Virus record (IMG/VR): IMGVR_UViG_3300021400_000552
Location: 51,676-115,675 of that record
Origin: a virus
Taxonomy: Duplodnaviria > Caudoviricetes
Length of the DNA stretch: 64,000 nt
Reading direction: 5' to 3' (one strand)
In this document: piece after piece, positions 16,057-63,789 of the stretch
How the letters are laid out: each line of letters opens with the position of its first letter
Position numbering within the stretch: the stretch's first letter is position 1
Notes under the pieces: generated by a model
Databases searched by the model: none
Told to the model about the DNA's origin: nothing
Seen by the model: the letters and a program-made list of their open reading frames with translations, nothing else
Translations under genes and position numbers: made by a program

Positions 16057-17220
16057 TTAAATTTGCGGTAAATTTACTGCTTGTGTTTTAAGTTTGTTAG
16101 AAATGGTAACATACGTGTTAAGCGTAACATTGATGCTACTGTGTCCCAATAATTCAGATATTATTTTTGGTTCTAAACCTTGTTCAAAAAGCGATGTTGC
16201 AAAAGTGTGTCGCAAACAATGCGCGCCCACACCCTTCATGTCTTCCGTGATATCTGCAGCTTTACAGATTCTATTAAATGTTTTTGTTAACTCTAATGGT
16301 GGCAATATTGTATTGCGTGTGGTTGTTATAATTAGCTTCGTATTATCAAACATGTGTGACATAATAGATAACATTTGAAAAGCTGTGTCATTGAGTGGTA
16401 CATAACGTCCAGAATTCCACTTTGTTTCATTATCTCTGATTACAACCTTGTATTTCCCGTCTATTTTAATTGATGCGGCGCTATTTCTGACTCTGATATA
16501 TTTTTCCTCGATATTAACATCTTCATAGCTTAGAGCGCACATTTCAGACTCTCTGAGCCCTGTTTGCATCATGAATACCAGGGCTGGTCCATAACGATAT
16601 ACATATGAGCCATTTTTATATTTCCGCAAGGCTTCGTCTGTAAATCTTTTACGCTCATTGTTATACATGTCGTTTCGTAAATAACGTGGTTCAGCTGGTT
16701 TAGTTTGAAATTTGTTTTGCGCTATCATGTTTACTGCCAGCATTGGATTTTCATTTGGCAATATATCTGCGCGTGCGATGGCGTATTTGTAGCATGCCGT
16801 GAAAGCATCGTATATTTTCTTAACTGATGAATACGACAAACCATTGTTTTGGGCGTCTGCGAGTCTTTGCTGAATTAGGTCGCTGGTTAAATTTTTAAAT
16901 TGCGTCTTTGTATAAAATGGTTTGATGTGCGTATTAATTGTACTTTCTAATCTTCGAAAACTCGTTTCGCTGATTGATATTTGCTTGTATTTTAGGAATT
17001 GATCAAAATAGTCGGGCACTTTAATGTTAGATGTAACGAGATTTCCGCCGCCTTTTTCTCGTTGAAATTCTTCTTGTAGCGATTTTAATACTCTTTTTGC
17101 TTCTGCTTTGTTATTTGTTTTGCGACTTTTGTCGCGTCCATTTTGCCTAAGACGCACTAAGTAACCGCCGTTTTCTAGCGGTGTAATACTTCCAGATCCC
17201 TTTTTTCTGCGTTGTGCCAT
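16057..17220 (-). CDS. int: Tyrosine integrase
   Basis: RRKKGSGSI arm-binding N-terminus; TGLRESE, HCLRHTFAT and LLGHSSINVTLNTY catalytic motifs. Confidence 0.92.
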   Translation of the reverse strand: MAQRRKKGSGSITPLENGGYLVRLRQNGRDKSRKTNNKAEAKRVLKSLQEEFQREKGGGNLVTSNIKVPDYFDQFLKYKQISISETSFRRLESTINTHIKPFYTKTQFKNLTSDLIQQRLADAQNNGLSYSSVKKIYDAFTACYKYAIARADILPNENPMLAVNMIAQNKFQTKPAEPRYLRNDMYNNERKRFTDEALRKYKNGSYVYRYGPALVFMMQTGLRESEMCALSYEDVNIEEKYIRVRNSAASIKIDGKYKVVIRDNETKWNSGRYVPLNDTAFQMLSIMSHMFDNTKLIITTTRNTILPPLELTKTFNRICKAADITEDMKGVGAHCLRHTFATSLFEQGLEPKIISELLGHSSINVTLNTYVTISNKLKTQAVNLPQI

Positions 17221-53839: not shown

Positions 53840-54501
53840 AAACCAAATTGCCTCCTATTATAAAAATGAACACAAAGAGGACGGGTCGATATCTATCTTG
53901 CTAATTAAAAAATCAAAAGGATATAAAGCTTCATCTGGATGGAATTCCGCCACATATTCCAACAGACGCGACATACTATTAGCGTCTTGCCAATTAAAAG
54001 TATAACAATTCGCGCCAAGATCGTACTCATAATACCTATAAGGAGCGTTTTCATTCCAAGTCCGATCGCGCATTGAAAGAATTGCATTACTTTCCATGTC
54101 GTTTTTTGCATGCTCGATAAAAAAATCACACATTAAATCCGACTCCGACTTATTTGTAGTGTATATCAATATCCTTTTCCCCATAATCAACCTCCATATT
54201 TACAAAAAGTTTATCAATGTATCATTGTCAATTTCAACAACACAATGGGGTTCAATATTTTCAACATGCCAATACCATGAACCGCCATCCTCAATAATTT
54301 TCACGCAATCATCAAATGTGCCAGATGCTACTGTCGCAATCGTGTCAATCCATTTATCCATTTTTCCACTATGGTTCAAATGGCGCGGATACCCCATCTT
54401 ATCTTTCGGTAAAATATGTATTTTATCCCCTGGTTTATAGTTTTTGTAAATTGCCATGATAGTAACCACCTTTCATTATCATTGCATTAATCTTTTGTCA
54501 A

Positions 54502-54827
54502 CTTCAACATCGGTCTACGATTTGTGTTTTGCTGCATGTGGCAGCTCAGTCCGTTACTTGTTTTTGCGGGCGCAGATCTTTCTTGTTCGGGTTTGGATCC
54601 ATTTTGTAAAATTTACCGATTTGGGTGTTTTGTTTTCAACGGTTTGTTATTGCTTGGACTTCGTCTTCGAGTTGTTTTGATGACGTGACTGTTCAACCTG
54701 TAGGTCGCCGCGTGCTAACTTGCCGGTGGCCCTGCCTCTTTTCCCGAACGAAATGATGGCTTCGATTACACCGAAGTCATTTGTAAATGTTCTACTGACA
54801 TTAACAAATAATGCACCGATGTTGAAG
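54502..54827 (-). ncRNA. Retron-like msr/msd ncRNA, copy D
   Basis: 13 bp terminal inverted repeat CTTCAACATCGGT (54502-54514 / 54815-54827). GCATTA follows the 5' arm, and the hairpin CUUCG-GUGUAAU-CGAAG is at 54760-54776. Confidence 0.75.
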
Positions 54828-54907
54828 CTCACAAAAAATTAAATTCACATCTTCACACAATACTTTCATTTTGTTGAATGAAAAAATTACTAAGTTTAAT
54901 GCTTTAC

Positions 54908-55289
54908 CATATCGACCACGAGGTATGTGAGATCTACAGCTGGATTTTCGAGTTGGGTGCGGGCTTTGTCTCTGGTGTGGTTTTGGACTTCCGTCCGTAG
55001 TAGCGGTGTTGAACTCTGTGTGGTGTCATCCGCTTCGTTTACGCAGAGTTGGTACTGGCTTTCGTCCTATTATCTGTGTTGATTTGAGTTTTTCTTTTGG
55101 TTTGCTCCTTGTCCAGATTTCGCGCGCTGTTGTTTGCGCGAGGAGGAAGCTAGTTTTGCCGTCGCTAACCGGTTCCCTGGTCAACCTTCATGTCTCACGA
55201 ATTGATCGCTTCGGTAACACCAAAGTGACTTATTTTTACACGCATAAGCGGCGGGGACTTCCCCGATTAATAAGTAATGCGTCGATATG
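54908..55289 (-). ncRNA. Retron-like msr/msd ncRNA, copy C
   Basis: 9 bp inverted repeat CATATCGAC (54908-54916 / 55281-55289), GCATTA, and the hairpin CUUUG-GUGUUAC-CGAAG at 55209-55225. Confidence 0.72.
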
Positions 55290-55327
55290 ATTAGGTTTTG
55301 AATAACTAATATCTATTAATATGCTTT

Positions 55328-55565: not shown

Positions 55566-55737
55566 CCATAAATAGCGCGGCATTGTCCCGTACTACCGCA
55601 CTGGTGATGATTTGAGTTCCGATTCAAAAATAAAAAGTTATTTTTATTTTTGATGAGTGAACTCAAATTGTTTGTTCGAAGCATTTTCGCTTTGACAACT
55701 TTGATTACACCAAAAGATACCGTTTTATTATTTATGG
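55566..55737 (-). ncRNA. Retron-like ncRNA, short variant copy B, directly after the RT
   Basis: 9 bp inverted repeat CCATAAATA (55566-55574 / 55729-55737), hairpin UUUUG-GUGUAAU-CAAAG (55699-55715) and a long msd-like hairpin at 55610-55668. It lacks the GCAU motif. Confidence 0.55.
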
Positions 55738-55792: not shown

Positions 55793-57109
55793 TTAAATAG
55801 ATGCGGCTTTGATATCTGCTTTGATTGCAGTCATGATATCGAAACCGTATTTCGTATTGTACTTTTGAATGATTTCACTAATTGGTTTTGACTCTACCGA
55901 TTTACAATATGCTATCTCTCCCTGCAGCTGCTGCAGATCGCTGAGATTCCATGCGAGAGCATTACGTCTATCCATTGCGTAATTCGAAAGCGCCGCCTTG
56001 AGACGTTTCTTACGTTTATGCCCAACAGTAACCTCATAATTTTGATTATACATTACTCCAAGCATCCAGTTCGCACCGGCATTGGAACCAAAATGTGTCT
56101 TCTCATGATTCAATTTCATCGGGGCATCGTACATTTCAAGGACCGCATTCACGTAACCAATAATTTCATTCGGATCAAACTTCATACGATTTGAAATCGT
56201 GATATCATCAGCATATCTCGTGTATACGAAATTATATTCCTTATCTCCATTTGGGGATTTTACTGCGTGCTTTTTTAAACCGTTGCTGATTTTCTGATCA
56301 ATTGCAATCATAATGATATTTGTCAGCATAGGGGAGAGTGGCGTGCCCTGTGGCAATCCACCATTTAAGAACGCAAGACTCAAACAATTTCTTAAAGTCT
56401 CTTCTCCAAGAGGTAATTTAACAAATTCTGAAAACGGATACACTTCAGATAGCATTTTTATTGTAAAATCTGGTGTAATACTACCAAAGAAATTACTGAA
56501 ATCAAGTTTGAGCTCCCAATTTGACTTGTTTGCAGCATGCTTTCTTACTGCATCTACCGGGCACCGTTTTGGCACATACGCAAAAGCCGATGTGTGATAT
56601 GTACAACCATCCATGAGCGCTTCAAACATCACTTTTAATGTTCTGAGGGCGTCTTCCAGTTCCTTACATGGGGCATCAATCCGTCTCCACTTCTTTTTCC
56701 CAGGCTTACGTTTTGGGAGATAAAATGTGCGATACATACCGCAATATACGTATCCTCGCTCATTTAAAACAGATGTCACATACTCACGCTTTTCGTATTC
56801 ATCCGTAATGCCTTTTTCTCGCGCCTCTTTCTCTAACTCGACCTGCAGTTCATAATTATAATTCGGATTTCCATCCACCAACAGATGCTTATTATTCTTA
56901 TAAAACTGCTGCATTGCTACTATTTGCTGATCAATTCTAAGTTCGCGTTTCTTTTCTGGTGTAATATGATCATAGTACACCGTACGTGTACCTGTAGTCT
57001 GAAACACCGTCGGAGGCGCGAACATCTGCATTGTCACCAGACCATTTAAGAAATCAATAAGATCAACCTTATGAGCCTTAGGCTTTAATCTGCTAACTAC
57101 ATACGGCAT
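55793..57109 (-). CDS. Retron-type reverse transcriptase
   Basis: RRIDAP..L, HTSAFAY..DAVRKH (region X-like AxxH), LKLDFSNFFGSI, LPQGTPLSP.L.N, YTRYADDITIS and MLGV (region Y VTG-like). Confidence 0.9.
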   Translation of the reverse strand: MPYVVSRLKPKAHKVDLIDFLNGLVTMQMFAPPTVFQTTGTRTVYYDHITPEKKRELRIDQQIVAMQQFYKNNKHLLVDGNPNYNYELQVELEKEAREKGITDEYEKREYVTSVLNERGYVYCGMYRTFYLPKRKPGKKKWRRIDAPCKELEDALRTLKVMFEALMDGCTYHTSAFAYVPKRCPVDAVRKHAANKSNWELKLDFSNFFGSITPDFTIKMLSEVYPFSEFVKLPLGEETLRNCLSLAFLNGGLPQGTPLSPMLTNIIMIAIDQKISNGLKKHAVKSPNGDKEYNFVYTRYADDITISNRMKFDPNEIIGYVNAVLEMYDAPMKLNHEKTHFGSNAGANWMLGVMYNQNYEVTVGHKRKKRLKAALSNYAMDRRNALAWNLSDLQQLQGEIAYCKSVESKPISEIIQKYNTKYGFDIMTAIKADIKAASI

Positions 57110-57130
57110 ACTACTTTCTCCTTCCTTTTA

Positions 57131-57388
57131 TTATTTACAATTTTCAAGAAAACTCATTACATCGTCTACTTCTGGAGCACCAGGTACGCTCATAATCGTG
57201 CCACCAACACTCATGAAATCAAAAAGACCTTCGATATAATATCCAAGGTCACTCTCCTGTTCCTGCGTAAGATGGTAAGTAGCATATATTTCATCATAAA
57301 GATCTGACTTAATGTTTTCAATTATCTCAGCCGCATCCTGTGCGGCACAAATAGCTTCTACAAGCCGTTCTTCAATAGCATCTTTCAT
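57131..57388 (-). CDS. Small acidic hypothetical protein (85 aa) between E1 and RT
   Basis: GGAGG RBS before the ATG at 57388; coupled to both neighbours. Confidence 0.6.
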   Translation of the reverse strand: MKDAIEERLVEAICAAQDAAEIIENIKSDLYDEIYATYHLTQEQESDLGYYIEGLFDFMSVGGTIMSVPGAPEVDDVMSFLENCK

Positions 57389-57389
57389 A

Positions 57390-58088
57390 TCATACCTCCT
57401 CTGGCAGATCATCACGCCGAAAAGCATCAATTGCATGCCATTTTGTATCATAGAAAATAACTTTATGGAGTTTACGACGATCTTTAACAAACTGAACAAA
57501 GTTATTCACACCCTCACTTACGATCCCCATAATTGTATAGAAAATCGACAACGTTTCATGGCAAGCAGACATCGGTGTCTGCGCATCAGCTTCTTCCTGT
57601 GTAAAATCAAGAGATGCAAAAAGCGCATCCTTCATTTCCACACTTGACCAATCCGCAGCATAATGCTGCGCGTCTTCAAGCCGCATACGAAAATCGAACA
57701 CCGCAATAACATTCGGATTATATTTATTATTGTTGACTATCGCCTGCCTGATTTTTAAGGAATCAACAGCCATAAACACATAACCGTCAAGCTGTTCGTC
57801 CTTATACCAGCCTTTGGTTTTTACCGTGTGCTCGCAATCTGGATTTATCTCGGCCATGATTGCTTTTAATGATTCTGTCTTCGGCTTACCTATATCAATT
57901 GACCGGTACATCTGGTTTGCCACGTTTTTACCTTCAACGATATCATCATCCCATAGGGTAATGTTGGTCAGACCCAACTTAGCGAGCAGAAAAGCGATGG
58001 TTGATCCGATAGCGCCACATCCAACGATGTGAATTTTTTCTTTGACAGAATCCGGCTGAAAAAACTCATAATGCTTATTTGTATCCAT
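57390..58088 (-). CDS. ThiF/E1-like adenylating enzyme
   Basis: IVGCGAIGS, DDDIVE.KN..NQ, GKPK, AVDS..IR, D.R and a C-terminal SAC cysteine. Confidence 0.88.
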   Translation of the reverse strand: MDTNKHYEFFQPDSVKEKIHIVGCGAIGSTIAFLLAKLGLTNITLWDDDIVEGKNVANQMYRSIDIGKPKTESLKAIMAEINPDCEHTVKTKGWYKDEQLDGYVFMAVDSLKIRQAIVNNNKYNPNVIAVFDFRMRLEDAQHYAADWSSVEMKDALFASLDFTQEEADAQTPMSACHETLSIFYTIMGIVSEGVNNFVQFVKDRRKLHKVIFYDTKWHAIDAFRRDDLPEEV

Positions 58089-59341
58089 TATGCTCCCTCC
58101 TTATTTCTAACTTCCTTTTTTTGATTTGCAATATAAACACTGATTACTCCGTTGTCGAATTCAACGTTTTCTGCTGGAGCTAAAATCATATCCATGATTT
58201 CATCCTCATTATCGGGAATCACAGCGGTGATATGTTCACCGTCTTCACTGTCTTCCCAAACAGAAAAGAACGAAACATTCTCTTCAATAATTCCCTCTAC
58301 TAATCTCATCAAAACGCAATCATTTGTAACTGGATGTCCAGGAATCAATTCGTCGTCTGTAACAATCAGGCGATAAATGTTCCCGCCAATCTCGTCCTCA
58401 ATAATTACATCATTCTTATAATCAAAAATGCGTTCATTTAAAACTTCGGTTACCTCAACGGAATCACTTTTTACTTCAATGTCATATGCCCTGCCAGACA
58501 CGGACCCGATGTCGTCGTAATTATCATCGTCATCTTCGCCGTAAAGTGATTTGTAATATTCGGATATCCACTCCTCACCGTAGTATCCGTAATCCTCACT
58601 TACATCATTGCTGGCTTTTGACGTACCATTAGTTGATACGACATCATTCTTGTCATCTTTTTTATTGTAATTGTTATTTTTCTGATTACGATTTTGAACG
58701 TATGTATTATAGCCACCATAATTGTATCCAGTCGCGACCTCATGATTCGCACCAAATGCTCCGCCACCCTGACTGGAGTATGTGCCCTTGTTGAACAAGA
58801 ACGCGGTTGTCGGCCGAATATCACGCACCAAAGTCTTTGTTTCTTCGAAATACTCAAGATTTGTTTTCCCGTATTCGACCTCGATCATGACATTTACATC
58901 ATTCTTTACGTACGCCTTATCTGTTTCTCCATCATATACCCACCAGTACATATCACAACGTTTGTTCATGATTACACAAATTGCGAATTTGTTTTCCAAA
59001 GCGGCACACGATGTTTGCGCAAACCGCTTAAACATATCAGTATCGGTGCCAGATGGATATGTCGCCATGTTCACATGTGAATGACCCCAAAGCCGTCTTG
59101 AGTTATATGTTTCATCATCTAAGGTATCGAGCCATTTGCGGAATTCAAGAGGATCATCGCGTTCATCATCCACAAAACATCCACTTGTATATTGGGGGAA
59201 AACCAGAATGTCCTTAATGCGATATTCAAGATGCCCAACCTGTTCACAGGTTCCAAACCATCCGACCTCTTTATCATACCCCATTACAAGTGTCTGCATC
59301 TTCATCCACGCAATTGGTGAAATTCTAATTGTTGCTCCCAT
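58088..59341 (-). CDS. JAB/MPN+ metalloprotease with acidic C-terminal extension
   Basis: EVGWFG and GHSHVNMATYPSGTD (E..HxHx7SxxD). Confidence 0.85.
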   Translation of the reverse strand: MGATIRISPIAWMKMQTLVMGYDKEVGWFGTCEQVGHLEYRIKDILVFPQYTSGCFVDDERDDPLEFRKWLDTLDDETYNSRRLWGHSHVNMATYPSGTDTDMFKRFAQTSCAALENKFAICVIMNKRCDMYWWVYDGETDKAYVKNDVNVMIEVEYGKTNLEYFEETKTLVRDIRPTTAFLFNKGTYSSQGGGAFGANHEVATGYNYGGYNTYVQNRNQKNNNYNKKDDKNDVVSTNGTSKASNDVSEDYGYYGEEWISEYYKSLYGEDDDDNYDDIGSVSGRAYDIEVKSDSVEVTEVLNERIFDYKNDVIIEDEIGGNIYRLIVTDDELIPGHPVTNDCVLMRLVEGIIEENVSFFSVWEDSEDGEHITAVIPDNEDEIMDMILAPAENVEFDNGVISVYIANQKKEVRNKEGA

Positions 59342-60706
59342 TTATATCTCCCCCTTTTCGATTGCCTTAATGAGTTCATGGAAATTGCGATATTCACCAT
59401 CTGGACACTCAATGCACTGTTTTGACTCAATGCCGTCAATGAAAATATTGGCCGCATAACTATCATATAACGTGAATTGCTGTGTCGCATATGCGATAGC
59501 ATTCATGGCTTCAAACACTCTTGCCTGCTTTAAGTATCCAATAATTGTTGTTGATGCAGTGCCAAAACAACTGATGCTGCTATTAAGATGAGGATGATTC
59601 ATAGAATGTTCGCGCTTTATATTCGTGGCAACATCAACAGTATAGTTATACATGTCAATATTGATGATTCCACACGTCCACACGATGCAATCTTTATCCT
59701 CGATAATACGCTTATATGCCTCCTTAACTACATCAATGTCATAGCCACCAACAAATCTGTCTAAGAACATCGAAGACGAGGATGCGTTCTTAATCATTGA
59801 CTCATATTCATCTTCTGTACTGTAAGATGTCAGCGGCACGCGGTATGCGAGATAAACCTTGTCATTTGAAACATGATCAAGCTTATAATCGAATGGCGAC
59901 TCCTGAATGAACTGGCGCAATTCGGTAATCGGATTTTCAAATTCGCACTGCGAATTCTCGATAGCATTTAGTTGAATCTTCAGCTCACGGATTTCAGTTG
60001 CAAGCTTCATAAACGCTGCGCAATAATCTTCATAACTACGCTGTTTATAATCCAGCTCATCGCGGATATTCTGAGAACGATTTTTTAAGATGCGCTCACC
60101 CATTTTGTCCAGCTTCTCTTGTTCAATCCTTTCAATAATACCGCTATCCCGAATAGTTTCCTCAAAAATTTCATTCATCTTCTGAATTCCATCTTCGCTG
60201 ATAATCGCAACAGCAGTATCCCGCACAATCTGCATCTGTTCTTCGGATAAGCCATCAAAATACCATGGCAATAATTTTGTAATCAGCGACAACAGCATCT
60301 GTCGCGTTCCATATCCGATGACAGACGAATATGAGGCGGTTGCATCCATCTTAGTGATCTGAACAATGGCACGTTCTGGGATCGAGTAGATCTGGTACAT
60401 TTGTTCATCTTCGTCAGCACCGATACTATTGTTTATAAACGCCGACGTTAATTCGTCCAACGCGTCCATCTTAATGGGTGCGCCGCCAATTACAATAGCG
60501 TTGCATGCGTCATCAGCAACGCCGTAATCTGCCGCATCAATCAATTTGATGGGCGTATCATTAAAACGGAAGTTTAGATCAAGTTTTAACTTATAAATTA
60601 ACAACAGCTTTAAGAAGTTTTCCCCCTCTAAATTGTTAAGAAACGAAATCGTTTCAAATTCATCCACAAACAACTGATACACATCGATAATTCTATCTCG
60701 ATCCAT
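59342..60706 (-). CDS. Coiled-coil protein with C-terminal prokaryotic E2-like domain
   Basis: NHPHLNSSISCFG matches the E2 HPx...C-hydrophobic-G signature; it lies between the Ubl and JAB genes. Confidence 0.6.
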   Translation of the reverse strand: MDRDRIIDVYQLFVDEFETISFLNNLEGENFLKLLLIYKLKLDLNFRFNDTPIKLIDAADYGVADDACNAIVIGGAPIKMDALDELTSAFINNSIGADEDEQMYQIYSIPERAIVQITKMDATASYSSVIGYGTRQMLLSLITKLLPWYFDGLSEEQMQIVRDTAVAIISEDGIQKMNEIFEETIRDSGIIERIEQEKLDKMGERILKNRSQNIRDELDYKQRSYEDYCAAFMKLATEIRELKIQLNAIENSQCEFENPITELRQFIQESPFDYKLDHVSNDKVYLAYRVPLTSYSTEDEYESMIKNASSSSMFLDRFVGGYDIDVVKEAYKRIIEDKDCIVWTCGIINIDMYNYTVDVATNIKREHSMNHPHLNSSISCFGTASTTIIGYLKQARVFEAMNAIAYATQQFTLYDSYAANIFIDGIESKQCIECPDGEYRNFHELIKAIEKGEI

Positions 60707-60740
60707 CCAGTAGTTCCTCCTTTCTTTTTTTATGGTTTAG

Positions 60741-61074
60741 TTATTGCAATCAACGATTAATTTGCAGATCAGGAAAGGTCGTCGGGTGGACCCGTGCGCT
60801 GGTACTTACTTATTTTATTTTAATTTTGCACGAGACATTTTGTTGTTTCGCTCGCATCGCCCCTTGGAAATTTCTTTTCTTTTTAGGATTTCGAGTTGCA
60901 TCCAACGTCCTTTTGTGATGATATGTCATTTGGGAGTTTCGGATGGCTGTAATGAACTCTGGTGCGTGCCTTCCTGGAGGTGGCAGCATTTCCGGCAGGC
61001 GTCCTTGTTCCTGATCGAAACGACGGCATGGATAACACCCATGTCACTCATAAAAGAGTTATGCATTGCAATAA
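60741..61074 (-). ncRNA. Retron-like msr/msd ncRNA, copy A, inside the Ubl operon
   Basis: 10 bp inverted repeat TTATTGCAAT (60741-60750 / 61065-61074), GCATAA, and the hairpin CAUGG-GUGUUAU-CCAUG at 61027-61043. Confidence 0.72.
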
Positions 61075-61127
61075 AAAATAAGGACGAGCTCACGCTCGCC
61101 CTTTAGTAAATATTATCTTATAACTTA

Positions 61128-61379
61128 TTAAGCACCAGTTGTTTTTGCGGTTTCATACAGCTGGATCGCGGCTCCCGGAGCAGCGTACCCTCTTGCGTAA
61201 GCCTGGTCGAATGTCATATCCAGGTCACCGCCACTGATTACCGCTCCGTTAATGGAGAACTGCGCCGTCATAAGTGCGCCCTTTTCTTCAAGATACTGCC
61301 TTACTGTCTTGTTTCCTGCGATGATTTCTTCCGGGTGTCTCTGAGCTGTGCTTACGAATCTTACCTTAACCTGTGTCAT
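61128..61379 (-). CDS. Ubiquitin-like (beta-grasp) protein
   Basis: 83 aa with V.V.FV, TVRQYL, INGA and DLD.TF, ending KTTGA; upstream of E2, JAB and E1. Confidence 0.65.
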   Translation of the reverse strand: MTQVKVRFVSTAQRHPEEIIAGNKTVRQYLEEKGALMTAQFSINGAVISGGDLDMTFDQAYARGYAAPGAAIQLYETAKTTGA

Positions 61380-61491: not shown

Positions 61492-61893
61492 TTACAGTTC
61501 GACCTCGTCGATGGTGTCAGCAATGGCCTGCACCTTATCGTCAGCCTCCTTAATTGCAGCCATGACCTGCTTCTCAACCTTTGCCAGATTTGCGAGAGCC
61601 ATTCCGTACTCATCCAGCATCCATTCCTTTGTGTCGCCCATGCCGTCCTCCGGCACGCCCATCCAAGCGATGAGCTTTTCGCCCACCTTGATGAACACCG
61701 CGCTGTAATCCTTCAGCTCTCCGAACACCTGTCCGCAGAACGCCCCCTCAGATGCCAGGACGGAGAATTTTTCATCACCATCCTCATCAACGATCTTCAG
61801 CGCCTCCGGCGCATATCTTGCAACTTTTGCAAAATCCTTTGCCGGAACATCCAGAGCAATACCTACCAGATTTTCGATCTTCTTTACCTTCAT
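61492..61893 (-). CDS. Hypothetical protein
   Basis: 133 aa with an AAGGAG RBS, immediately upstream of the Ubl gene. Confidence 0.6.
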   Translation of the reverse strand: MKVKKIENLVGIALDVPAKDFAKVARYAPEALKIVDEDGDEKFSVLASEGAFCGQVFGELKDYSAVFIKVGEKLIAWMGVPEDGMGDTKEWMLDEYGMALANLAKVEKQVMAAIKEADDKVQAIADTIDEVEL

Positions 61894-62013: not shown

Positions 62014-62244
62014 TCAGCCAGAACCTTCTAACTTACGGAGTGCTTTGAGTAACTCACCAATTTCATCTGCGGTAAAGGTGACACCCTTACCCATCTTGTC
62101 ATGGTCTGGCGACCAATCGCGGATGTCGAATTTAGGGTCCCGCCCATTCCATGACACCCGATTGAGCTCTTTGCGCCACCCTTTCGGGCTTTCACTTAGC
62201 ACTGCAATATGCTCCTTGATTTCAAAACTTACTCCATTCGCCAT
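62014..62244 (-). CDS. PC4/YdbC-family ssDNA-binding protein
   Basis: FEIKEHI.VLS..KGW.KELN.VSWNG..PKFDIRDWSPDH.KMGKG.T. Confidence 0.85.
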   Translation of the reverse strand: MANGVSFEIKEHIAVLSESPKGWRKELNRVSWNGRDPKFDIRDWSPDHDKMGKGVTFTADEIGELLKALRKLEGSG

Positions 62245-62522: not shown

Positions 62523-63218
62523 CTACAACATTTGTAATAGAACATCCTGTGTCAGCGGCTTTGGTTCCCAAGTGTGTACTGGTGTACACTCCACATTCGC
62601 ATGATGATTTTCCGTTGTGCTATAGTATTTACTATCCTCCATCATTTCATTAAAGGTATAATATGTCTCATCGACACCACAATCATACCCACTTATGTAT
62701 CCATACTCGCCAACATAATCCTCACCATCCATTGCCCGATCTCTACCAAACTCATAATAGTCAATATAGTCTTCAATCCAGTCTGGCAATTCGTTACATT
62801 CGAAATACGATCGAGCCACTTCTCTACCATAACCTTCGTAGCTCTCTCCATATTCGTATGTGTAATAATTTATGTCTTCGGACTGCAAACACAAATTACA
62901 AAATACTTCAAGATCGCTACATCCGGCCCAATCAATGTAAGCCTCTACACTTGGTGTCCATGTATCACAATCGCCCCATAATTCTTCCGCTAAATTAATC
63001 AATAACGGATGGTTACAAGACTCCATCAATCCTTCAACCGGCGTTTCCGTACTTATTTCAACCACGTCAACATTTTCAATTTCTTCGCTATCCGCCTCCT
63101 CTTCATCGTATTCAACACCTAACTGGTTGAGTGCATCAAAATAATCTTGCCGTTTAAATGGCGTGTTTATCTTGACGATCTCTCCCGTCGTTGCATTCTG
63201 CAACCATATATAACTCAT
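62523..63218 (-). CDS. ArdA-like antirestriction (DNA mimic) protein
   Basis: Very acidic, with the C-terminal ELPDWIEDYIDYYEFGRD motif. Confidence 0.6.
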   Translation of the reverse strand: MSYIWLQNATTGEIVKINTPFKRQDYFDALNQLGVEYDEEEADSEEIENVDVVEISTETPVEGLMESCNHPLLINLAEELWGDCDTWTPSVEAYIDWAGCSDLEVFCNLCLQSEDINYYTYEYGESYEGYGREVARSYFECNELPDWIEDYIDYYEFGRDRAMDGEDYVGEYGYISGYDCGVDETYYTFNEMMEDSKYYSTTENHHANVECTPVHTWEPKPLTQDVLLQML

Positions 63219-63789
63219 CACCACCCTCCTTTCTTGCATTTGCAATATCCTCCATTGCCTCGCCATATGTATCGGCGCTGCAATAAAAAACGCCGTCACG
63301 TTTGACGACGTAATGACCGTATTCATGTACTATTTTATACATTGTTCTACACCTCAAGTCAGCACGGTAACTTCTACATCCTCCGGGATGACGATCATAC
63401 CTTTGATTGCATCAAAAATTTCCGCGCCAGTCATCTCTCGATATAACTTTGTCAACAGAATCATACCGCCATCATCATCGACAAACGCAGGTTCGTAATG
63501 ATTCTCGCAGCTGAGCCGAAATGTACAGTAATCGATATAGTCAACATATCCCTGTTGAATGTCCTCCTCCAGTAGATTGTCGCCAGTGCCCTCACAGAAA
63601 GCAATGTACAGGCCGCCGCATCTATCGTACGGGTCATCTACATAAAGCATAGTCTCACATCCCTTATGAGTGTTGAGATAATCGTATACATCTTTTCTAT
63701 ACATAATCCACACCCTCCTCTATTAACTCAATAAGAATCGGCGGTCGATGTTGGCGGGAACACCCGCTCAATCACCGCCGCCCTGTAAA

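Follow-up and report, generated by a model that had tools for sequence, protein, structure and literature searches.

Retrons and bacterial ubiquitin-like conjugation systems are recent entries in the biology of phage-bacteria conflict, where both have been studied as host weapons. Here, we analysed a stretch of 64,000 nucleotides (the window) in which the two kinds of system are joined in one phage-borne module. The window covers 64 kb at the right-hand end of an IMG/VR contig of 115.7 kb (IMGVR_UViG_3300021400_000552; CheckV completeness 65%). It belongs to a temperate gut phage that has an integrase gene at positions 16057-17220, encodes its own replisome including a DNA polymerase of 1060 amino acids (aa) and carries several tRNA genes. 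On the minus strand, a retron-type reverse transcriptase (RT) and several copies of a non-coding RNA (ncRNA) lie together with genes for a ubiquitin-like protein (Ubl), an E2-like protein of 454 aa (p454), a JAB/JAMM metalloprotease, an E1-like adenylating enzyme and a conserved protein, p133. The coupling of the RT and the Ubl genes is genetic, and the pairing recurs in well over a hundred contigs of related phages and prophages. The literature searched contained no description of a link between an RT and E1, JAB or Ubl genes.

Comparison with retrons and bacterial ubiquitin-like systems

The RT of the window scored best against retron models, with RT_II-A in PADLOC (4e-46) and retron_St85_RT in NCBIfam (7e-51), where its 173 bits stay under the curated cut-off of 235. 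The likeness to retrons extends to the ncRNA, in which the ends of copies A, B and C are inverted repeats, the 5' arm is followed by an unpaired G, and hairpins of the msr type covary. In most loci the ncRNA is found immediately before the RT, and the RT itself is tied to accessory genes. In contrast to retrons, these accessory genes are a five-gene Ubl conjugation set with no toxin, several ncRNA copies are present per locus, the main copy of the window stands before the E2-like gene and not before the RT, the RT has an extra N-terminal domain, and the module is carried by large temperate Clostridia phages. An earlier note on this DNA had seen no classical retron toxin effector next to the RT. 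This was borne out, as no PADLOC defence or effector model matched any flanking gene and the PADLOC retron effector models matched no gene in or around the module. Judged by its effector, the module belongs to none of the 13 retron types modelled in PADLOC (I-XIII).

The Ubl genes were compared with the Bil system (BilABCD, PMC10557695). Both encode four activities in the same order, Ubl, E2, JAB and E1, with a JAB/JAMM enzyme in the operon. Both have a single beta-grasp Ubl, and the model of the window Ubl matched the BilA structure 8tyx_A. Both have Ubls with short C-terminal tails that are presumably removed by the JAB enzyme, and the window Ubl ends in Gly-Ala like the BilA of E. aridi. 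The Bil Ubls have an invariant Gly ahead of the tail (PMC10557695), whereas the family described here ends in [N/G/S]-Ala with an invariant Ala. Further differences to Bil are the added RT, ncRNA and p133, and an E1 of one domain where the type II BilD has an inactive and an active adenylation domain and a CYS domain. The E2 domain occupies the last third of p454 (454 aa), and its N-x-H precedes the Cys, whereas BilB has its His after the Cys (CEHH type).

The E1 was best matched in PADLOC by the Cap2-type E1-E2 models (3e-14). The module shares this likeness with the type II CBASS Cap2/Cap3 pair, together with the JAB partner and the character of a mobile conflict-type cassette. Unlike in type II CBASS, no CD-NTase model matched in the operon, and the E1 and the E2-like protein are encoded by separate genes. 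The PRTRC cassette was rejected, since PRTRC_ThiF (TIGR03736) gave 27 bits against a cut-off of 144.75 and no other PRTRC model matched. From the ThiS/MoaD sulfur carriers the module differs in that the Ubl has no Gly-Gly end and that no rhodanese or desulfurase was found among the module and flanking genes searched. E1-E2/JAB operons of the classes 6a-6e have been described by Iyer et al. 2006 (PMC1779556), in which reverse transcriptase is mentioned 0 times. Going by the features that define them, the module is outside the retron types, Bil, Cap2/Cap3 and PRTRC. By analogy, it would work most like a retron with a Bil-like cascade in the effector slot.

Co-occurrence of the RT and the Ubl genes

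The earlier note had proposed that the RT/ncRNA unit and the Ubl cascade belong together, with chance adjacency in an early operon as the alternative. Single-sequence search of IMG/VR gave no close relatives of the RT, and alignments were used instead. The 80 best IMG/VR relatives obtained in this way have RTs that are 36-56% identical to that of the window. E1 was present in 75/80 of these loci and JAB in 74/80, and the five loci without E1 are truncated by contig ends. Nearly always, E1 was within about 1.5 kb upstream of the RT on the same strand, the few exceptions having genes inserted between the two. The alignment of p454 was too divergent for seeding a locus scan; after clustering, p454 was assigned in 76 of the RT-anchored loci, and those without it are likewise truncated by contig ends.

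The reverse search, anchored on E1, found 337 E1-related loci in IMG/VR. In 80 of these phage contigs, the RT was present in 80/80, JAB in 79 and p454 in 78. A set of genome contigs, mostly from metagenome-assembled genomes (MAGs) of Clostridia (Oscillospiraceae, Lachnospiraceae, Christensenellaceae and others) with some loci in contigs of more than 240 kb, had the RT in 71/80 loci. Seven genome loci without RT have less than 2 kb of contig left downstream, and L196 probably runs off its contig, a relative of it having the RT 7 kb further on. The prophage-like locus L182:8001-9763 (CAUDCW010000003.1) carries p133/Ubl, p454, JAB, E1 and, right after E1, an ncRNA (E 9e-8); an open reading frame (ORF) of 330 aa that has no Pfam match follows.

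The linkage was kept through three gene orders. Most loci have the ncRNA before the RT, the window and the locus L003 have it before the E2-like gene, and in L198 the RT is located between JAB and E1. Taken together, the RT clade and the E1, JAB and E2-like genes co-occurred in both directions, on one strand and in a common order, they stayed linked through rearrangement, and they move as a block. The close RT homologs therefore do not generally lack the Ubl genes or the reverse, the counts of 75/80, 80/80 and 71/80 contradict an adjacency by chance, and the proposal that the two parts belong together was upheld.

Mobility of the module

We looked for E1 in the 27 IMG/VR contigs with the DNA polymerase closest to that of the window (48-60% identical, one at 34%). 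E1 was found in 0/27, and it was absent from all six of these contigs that are rated at least 90% complete. For a control, E1 was found in 5/5 module-bearing records. Conversely, the module-bearing phages have polymerases that are 27-37% identical to that of the window, whereas their E1 reaches 70% and their RT 56%. Since the polymerases are distant and E1 and RT are similar, the block moves between phage backbones as a unit. The pairwise identities of RT, E1, JAB and p454 correlate with each other (Spearman 0.81-0.88).

Movement as a unit is typical of self-contained conflict systems. It is also the strongest argument that the RT and the Ubl genes work together. Judging from these comparisons, the RT, the template RNAs and the Ubl genes together make up a single accessory module of temperate Clostridia phages, which is self-contained and horizontally mobile.

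Layout of the locus

The Ubl-to-RT cassette is compact and spans about 5.6 kb. Read along the minus strand from 61893 to 54487, the features follow the order of Table 1, with a 73-aa ORF between the short ncRNA and copies B and C. No close DNA relatives of the window were found among the GenBank phages.

Table 1. Features of the module in the window, in the order of the minus strand
Feature	Position	Strand	Description and evidence
p133	61492..61893	-	130-aa conserved protein with C-terminal helix; opens the module
Ubl	61128..61379	-	83-aa beta-grasp ubiquitin-like protein; end ...KTTGA
Terminator-like GC hairpin with T-run (10 bp)	61080..61103	-	Terminator scan; abuts 5' arm of ncRNA copy A
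ncRNA copy A	about 60741..61074	-	Retron msr-msd-like; closing helix, hairpins, weak covariance-model match
p454 (E2-like, 454 aa)	59342..60706	-	Predicted structure and invariant motif
JAB/JAMM metalloprotease	58088..59341	-	PADLOC JAB 2.5e-5; conserved JAMM motif
E1-like adenylating enzyme (ThiF/MoeB type), 232 aa	57390..58088	-	Pfam ThiF 4e-20
85-aa acidic ORF	57131..57388	-	ORF with strong ribosome-binding site; window phage only
Retron-type RT, 438 aa	55793..57109	-	RVT_1 4e-19; YADD intact
Short ncRNA variant	55566..55737	-	Directly after RT stop; GUGUAAU-loop hairpin at 55715-55699
ncRNA copy B	54906..55291	-	Closing helix of about 14 bp; hairpin at 55225-55209
ncRNA copy C	54487..54842	-	39-nt inverted-repeat arms; hairpin at 54776-54760

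The coordinates agree with the arrangement that the earlier note had described. Copy A (about 61074-60741) lies between the Ubl gene, which ends at 61128, and the E2-like gene, which begins at 60706. The gaps of 1 nt from E1 to the 85-aa ORF and of 21 nt from the stop of this ORF to the RT were both exact. The absence of an obvious terminator between E1 and the RT was also confirmed, as the scan listed none in the spacers from the E1 stop to the RT start. Weak terminator-like sites in this region were within coding sequences only, e.g. at 57630-57612 in the E1 gene.

A strong terminator-like hairpin stands after the Ubl gene and abuts the 5' arm of copy A, and the enzymes, the ncRNA and the RT are therefore probably expressed by read-through of this hairpin at 61103-61080. 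The layout is repeated in L003, where a terminator-like hairpin also abuts the ncRNA. A GC-rich hairpin located 5-15 nt 5' of the ncRNA arm was observed in L005, L006, L012, L028, L042, L053, L072 and the window (61080-61103). This spacing leaves no space for a promoter. The hairpin may serve in attenuation, or in the processing or stabilisation of the 5' end, and not be a true terminator.

The gene for a 267-aa protein with an ArdA anti-restriction domain (62523-63326; 29.1 bits, cut-off 27) shares the strand of the module and is located about 1.1 kb upstream, and L003 has a homolog of this protein at the equivalent position.

The RT and the ncRNA copies

The RT has a conserved N-terminal extension of about 125 aa. 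Its YADD motif is intact and the invariant residues are kept. No fusions of the RT with E1, E2 or Ubl were found, and E1 was not seen fused to the RT or to other partners among the longer proteins searched, which is weak evidence.

Most of the related loci leave about 320-450 nt free immediately before the RT, and this space holds a conserved RNA. Its order is a 5' arm of the CUGUAAC type, an unpaired G, two hairpins, a conserved UAACAAAUUGUCGGG tract, a variable region and a 3' arm complementary to the 5' arm, followed by the ribosome-binding site and the start of the RT. Compensatory changes were observed at 12/12 of the predicted hairpin pairs. A covariance model was built from 20 loci, with the window and L003 left out, and it found 184 copies at an E-value of 0.01 or better in 80 loci. 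Because all 12 pairs covary and 184/184 matches are on the RT strand, the ncRNA is taken as real and as encoded on that strand. Usually one copy is ahead of the RT and one to three are behind it. In some phages, many extra copies are spread over the 5-9 kb that follow the RT, each of them on the RT strand. Such copies are seen in L003 (12407-12483 and 18749-18827) and in L011, where nine model matches lie between 9270 and 14541.

The two best matches of the window to the covariance model were both weak, copy A at 61077-61000 (17.5 bits, E 0.17) and copy C at 54824-54734 (14.8 bits, E 0.58). Copy A has a 10-bp closing helix (UUAUUGCAAU/AUUGCAAUAA), the unpaired G after the 5' arm, two msr hairpins, the second of which is CAUGG-GUGUUAU-CCAUG at 61043-61027, and a branched template region. 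It is followed by a ribosome-binding site and the start of the E2-like gene. The weak model match together with the closing helix, the G and both hairpins marks copy A as the template RNA of the family, relocated from before the RT to before the E2-like gene. The closest relative, L003 (RT 56% identical), likewise has its ncRNA before the E2-like gene and a short copy directly after the RT.

Copy B has GCAU after the 5' arm and the hairpin CUUUG-GUGUUAC-CGAAG (z-score -2.7). In copy C the arms are 82% complementary, and the hairpin is CUUCG-GUGUAAU-CGAAG. A hairpin with a GUGUNAY loop is common to all four ncRNA copies of the window. As a family-wide motif it was rejected, since other loci carry other loops on the same stem and the motif is limited to the window, L003 and the L048-type loops. 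A further hairpin, the fifth, was seen at 62071-62091 inside a 76-aa ORF upstream of p133; it carries a GGUGUCAC loop on a stem of 7 bp and is probably there by chance. The template regions of copies A, B and C had no blastn match in the GenBank phages. This gave no support to the idea of a guide or decoy, and as a null result it neither backs nor excludes a decoy.

The conjugation proteins

The AlphaFold2 model of the Ubl has a pLDDT of 89, and Foldseek matched it to SUMO1, Hub1, an archaeal ubiquitin and the bacterial Bil Ubl 8tyx_A, with a probability of 1.0. The predicted fold is thus a beta-grasp, as confirmed by these matches. In the family alignment, the Ubl ends in K-[AT]-x-[N/G/S]-A, with an invariant Ala that either is the last residue or has a short variable tail behind it. 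A penultimate conserved Gly occurs in a minority of the family, the window included.

The p133 cluster is present in 70/82 loci, and the loci without it are truncated by contig ends. It had no match in Pfam, PHROG, PDB or Atlas. A relationship of p133 to the Ubl was ruled out by profile comparison, and the alignment of p133 has no invariant Lys. In about 9 related loci, the Ubl is fused N-terminally to p133 with the junction ...DNA|AKI..., whereas the free-standing p133 starts with M-AKI.... A cut after the Ala would therefore give the same p133 N-terminus as removal of the initiator Met. We infer that JAB cleaves after the invariant Ala and that the same Ala is the residue activated by E1.

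The JAB domain makes up the N-terminal 170 aa of its protein and is followed by a variable, acidic and Asn-rich C-terminal extension. The JAMM motif (E25, H87-S-H89, S97 and D100) was kept in 52/52 family members. The E1 consists of a single ThiF-type domain of 223-232 aa across the family. Its GCGxxG nucleotide-binding motif and the residues D47, N55, N58-Q59, K70, D109, R114 and C176 are invariant, and the Mg-binding Asp is kept. The best NCBIfam matches of E1 were ThiF and MoeB. By their conserved residues, the enzymes of the module look catalytically competent.

In the AlphaFold2 model of p454 (pLDDT 84.6), an N-terminal alpha/beta domain is connected by a coiled coil of about 70 residues to a C-terminal E2 (UBC)-like domain. 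Residues 256-433 aligned end to end with a large number of E2 enzymes, among them UbcH7, Ubc13, UBE2S and UbcH5b (Z 4-4.9 over 112-121 residues, VIA-align). The C-terminal domain is predicted to have one helix, four strands, a loop and then helices, an order that resembles the E2 layout. His373 and Cys380 are the sole invariant residues of the family and Asn371 is near-invariant, so that Asn and His are 9 and 7 residues ahead of the Cys in the loop motif PN[PTQ]H-x5/6-C-x-G. This motif resembles the canonical HPN...Cys site of E2 enzymes, and p454 is a probable E2-like protein on the model and the motif. The whole-model searches of p454 (Foldseek and a wide VIA search) were dominated by the coiled coil, and the E2 fold surfaced only in a second-look alignment. 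The Pfam matches over 42 members were rejected as coiled-coil noise, sequence-profile searches of the PDB matched coiled coils only, and tblastn of p454 against the GenBank phages gave no match. Residues 24-166 are weakly like the molybdenum-cofactor proteins MoaB/MogA (Z 4.2-5.0 over 97-117 residues), which is too weak for interpretation.

p454 is the fastest-evolving part of the module, with a mean pairwise identity of 30% compared with 60% for E1. The identity is 27% in the N-terminal domain, 22% in the coiled coil and 31% in the E2-like domain, and the family falls into 2553 clusters at 50% identity. This divergence and the number of clusters fit a role of p454 in target recognition under an arms race.

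The 85-aa acidic ORF between E1 and the RT has a strong GAGGAGG ribosome-binding site. No homolog was found in the 80 related loci, and the ORF is particular to the window phage. A weak Pfam match to UBA_SIK3 was below threshold (20.9 bits, cut-off 27); it is suggestive in a Ubl operon, but not significant. In subsets of the phages, two variable inserts break up the operon. Between E1 and the ncRNA (L015-L027 and others), a 250-300-aa protein with DUF6273 and an N-terminus that is Hoc-like in PHROGs was observed, and between JAB and E1 (L009, L029, L039 and others) a 150-200-aa protein that is also found elsewhere in the same loci.

Proposed mechanism and alternatives

We tentatively favour the module as a retron-like unit with the Ubl cascade as its output, in which the RT-DNA complex would most likely control or direct the tagging by Ubl. 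As in retrons, the RT would copy part of one or more of the ncRNAs into a small single-stranded DNA that is kept bound to the RT, and this nucleoprotein would control or direct the Ubl cascade. In that case, the cascade would fill the place of the toxin effectors of classical retrons. JAB would trim the Ubl or cleave the Ubl-p133 fusions to expose the invariant C-terminal Ala, and E1 would adenylate the Ubl and then transfer it to Cys380 in p454. Selection of the protein for tagging would fall to the N-terminal domain and the coiled coil of p454, which evolve fast. As the output, proteins of a competing phage would be tagged, as happens in Bil, or else proteins of the host. It is improbable, though conceivable, that the RT-made DNA is itself covalently tagged with Ubl, giving a conjugate of protein and nucleic acid, or that the DNAs made from the different template RNAs of one phage steer the E2-like enzyme towards particular targets, which would be a nucleic-acid-programmed protein tagging.

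Several points weigh against this proposal. The succession of steps and the direction in which control runs are taken by analogy from retrons and Bil, and a function in the life cycle of the phage itself would explain the strong conservation just as well. The E2-like call rests on modest structural scores (Z below 5) and a motif, and no profile library recognises p454, with no E2 match in Pfam or PADLOC. The Ubl ends in [N/G/S]-Ala and not in Gly as the known conjugated Ubls do. In addition, L182 keeps the Ubl genes and the ncRNA with no RT of the family in a 2.6-Mb MAG. It is the sole clear miss, and it suggests that the Ubl part may be able to persist alone.

It is unlikely, but deserves consideration, that the two arms share a purpose and not a mechanism, both serving counter-defence or host takeover in lytic growth. 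The RT-DNA would then act on the sensors of the host as a decoy or sponge, and immune proteins of the host would be inactivated by the Ubl cascade or by JAB. The long co-directional block, with the ArdA-like gene about 1.1 kb upstream and small early-type genes around, is in line with this, as are the very wide spread in one phage group (the 337 E1-related loci in IMG/VR) and the several ncRNA copies per phage, which suggest a high dosage of RNA or DNA. However, arms with no more than a common purpose would be expected to separate often and they almost never do, and no known anti-defence family matched any protein of the module. A somewhat more doubtful idea is that the nucleoprotein is the product of the cascade, such that the acceptor of the Ubl is the RT, p133 or the DNA or RNA made by the RT (e.g. 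through an ester on a hydroxyl), giving a decoy, a primer or a signal. The ncRNA is embedded in the Ubl operon and shifts its position inside the operon but never outside, the Ubl-p133 fusions mean that in some phages the Ubl is made joined to a protein of the module, the invariant Ala at the C-terminus hints at a non-canonical chemistry, and the clade-specific N-terminal domain of the RT could dock the machinery. On the other hand, the lack of an invariant Lys in p133 and of any RT-E1, RT-E2 or RT-Ubl fusion speaks against it, and an E2 with a fast-evolving non-catalytic part suits variable targets better than a fixed internal one. To our knowledge, no bacterial system has been found to conjugate a Ubl to nucleic acid.

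We regard as very unlikely a sulfur-carrier system of the ThiS/MoaD-ThiF/MoeB type that, by thiolation or in another way, modifies nucleic acids, e.g. the RT-DNA or a phage tRNA, with JAB trimming as in CysO-Mec or QbsE-QbsD. Such a system would account for the minimal, 232-aa E1 of the ThiF/MoeB type with its top NCBIfam matches, for the weak MoaB/MogA likeness of the p454 N-terminal domain and for the several tRNA genes of the phage. It is opposed by the missing C-terminal Gly-Gly of the Ubl, by the absence of rhodanese and cysteine desulfurase matches in the operon and flanking genes, by the E2-like domain with its invariant His and Cys, which is unnecessary for sulfur transfer, and by the Ubl model, which is closest to the conjugated Ubls SUMO and BilA. 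That two independent systems stand side by side by chance in an early operon is scarcely credible. L182, with Ubl genes and no RT, is the single locus in its favour, whereas the almost invariable co-occurrence in both directions, which holds for RTs as little as 36% identical, the linkage through three gene orders and the joint absence of the RT and the Ubl genes from the phages with the closest polymerase all contradict it.

Should the RT-DNA indeed control or aim the Ubl cascade, as we favour, the module would represent a new regulation of protein tagging and a new class of retron output. New retron RTs and template RNAs may also be drawn from such modules in Gram-positive gut phages. As the cassette is compact and its catalytic residues are clear, the proposed roles of its enzymes can be tested directly by mutation.

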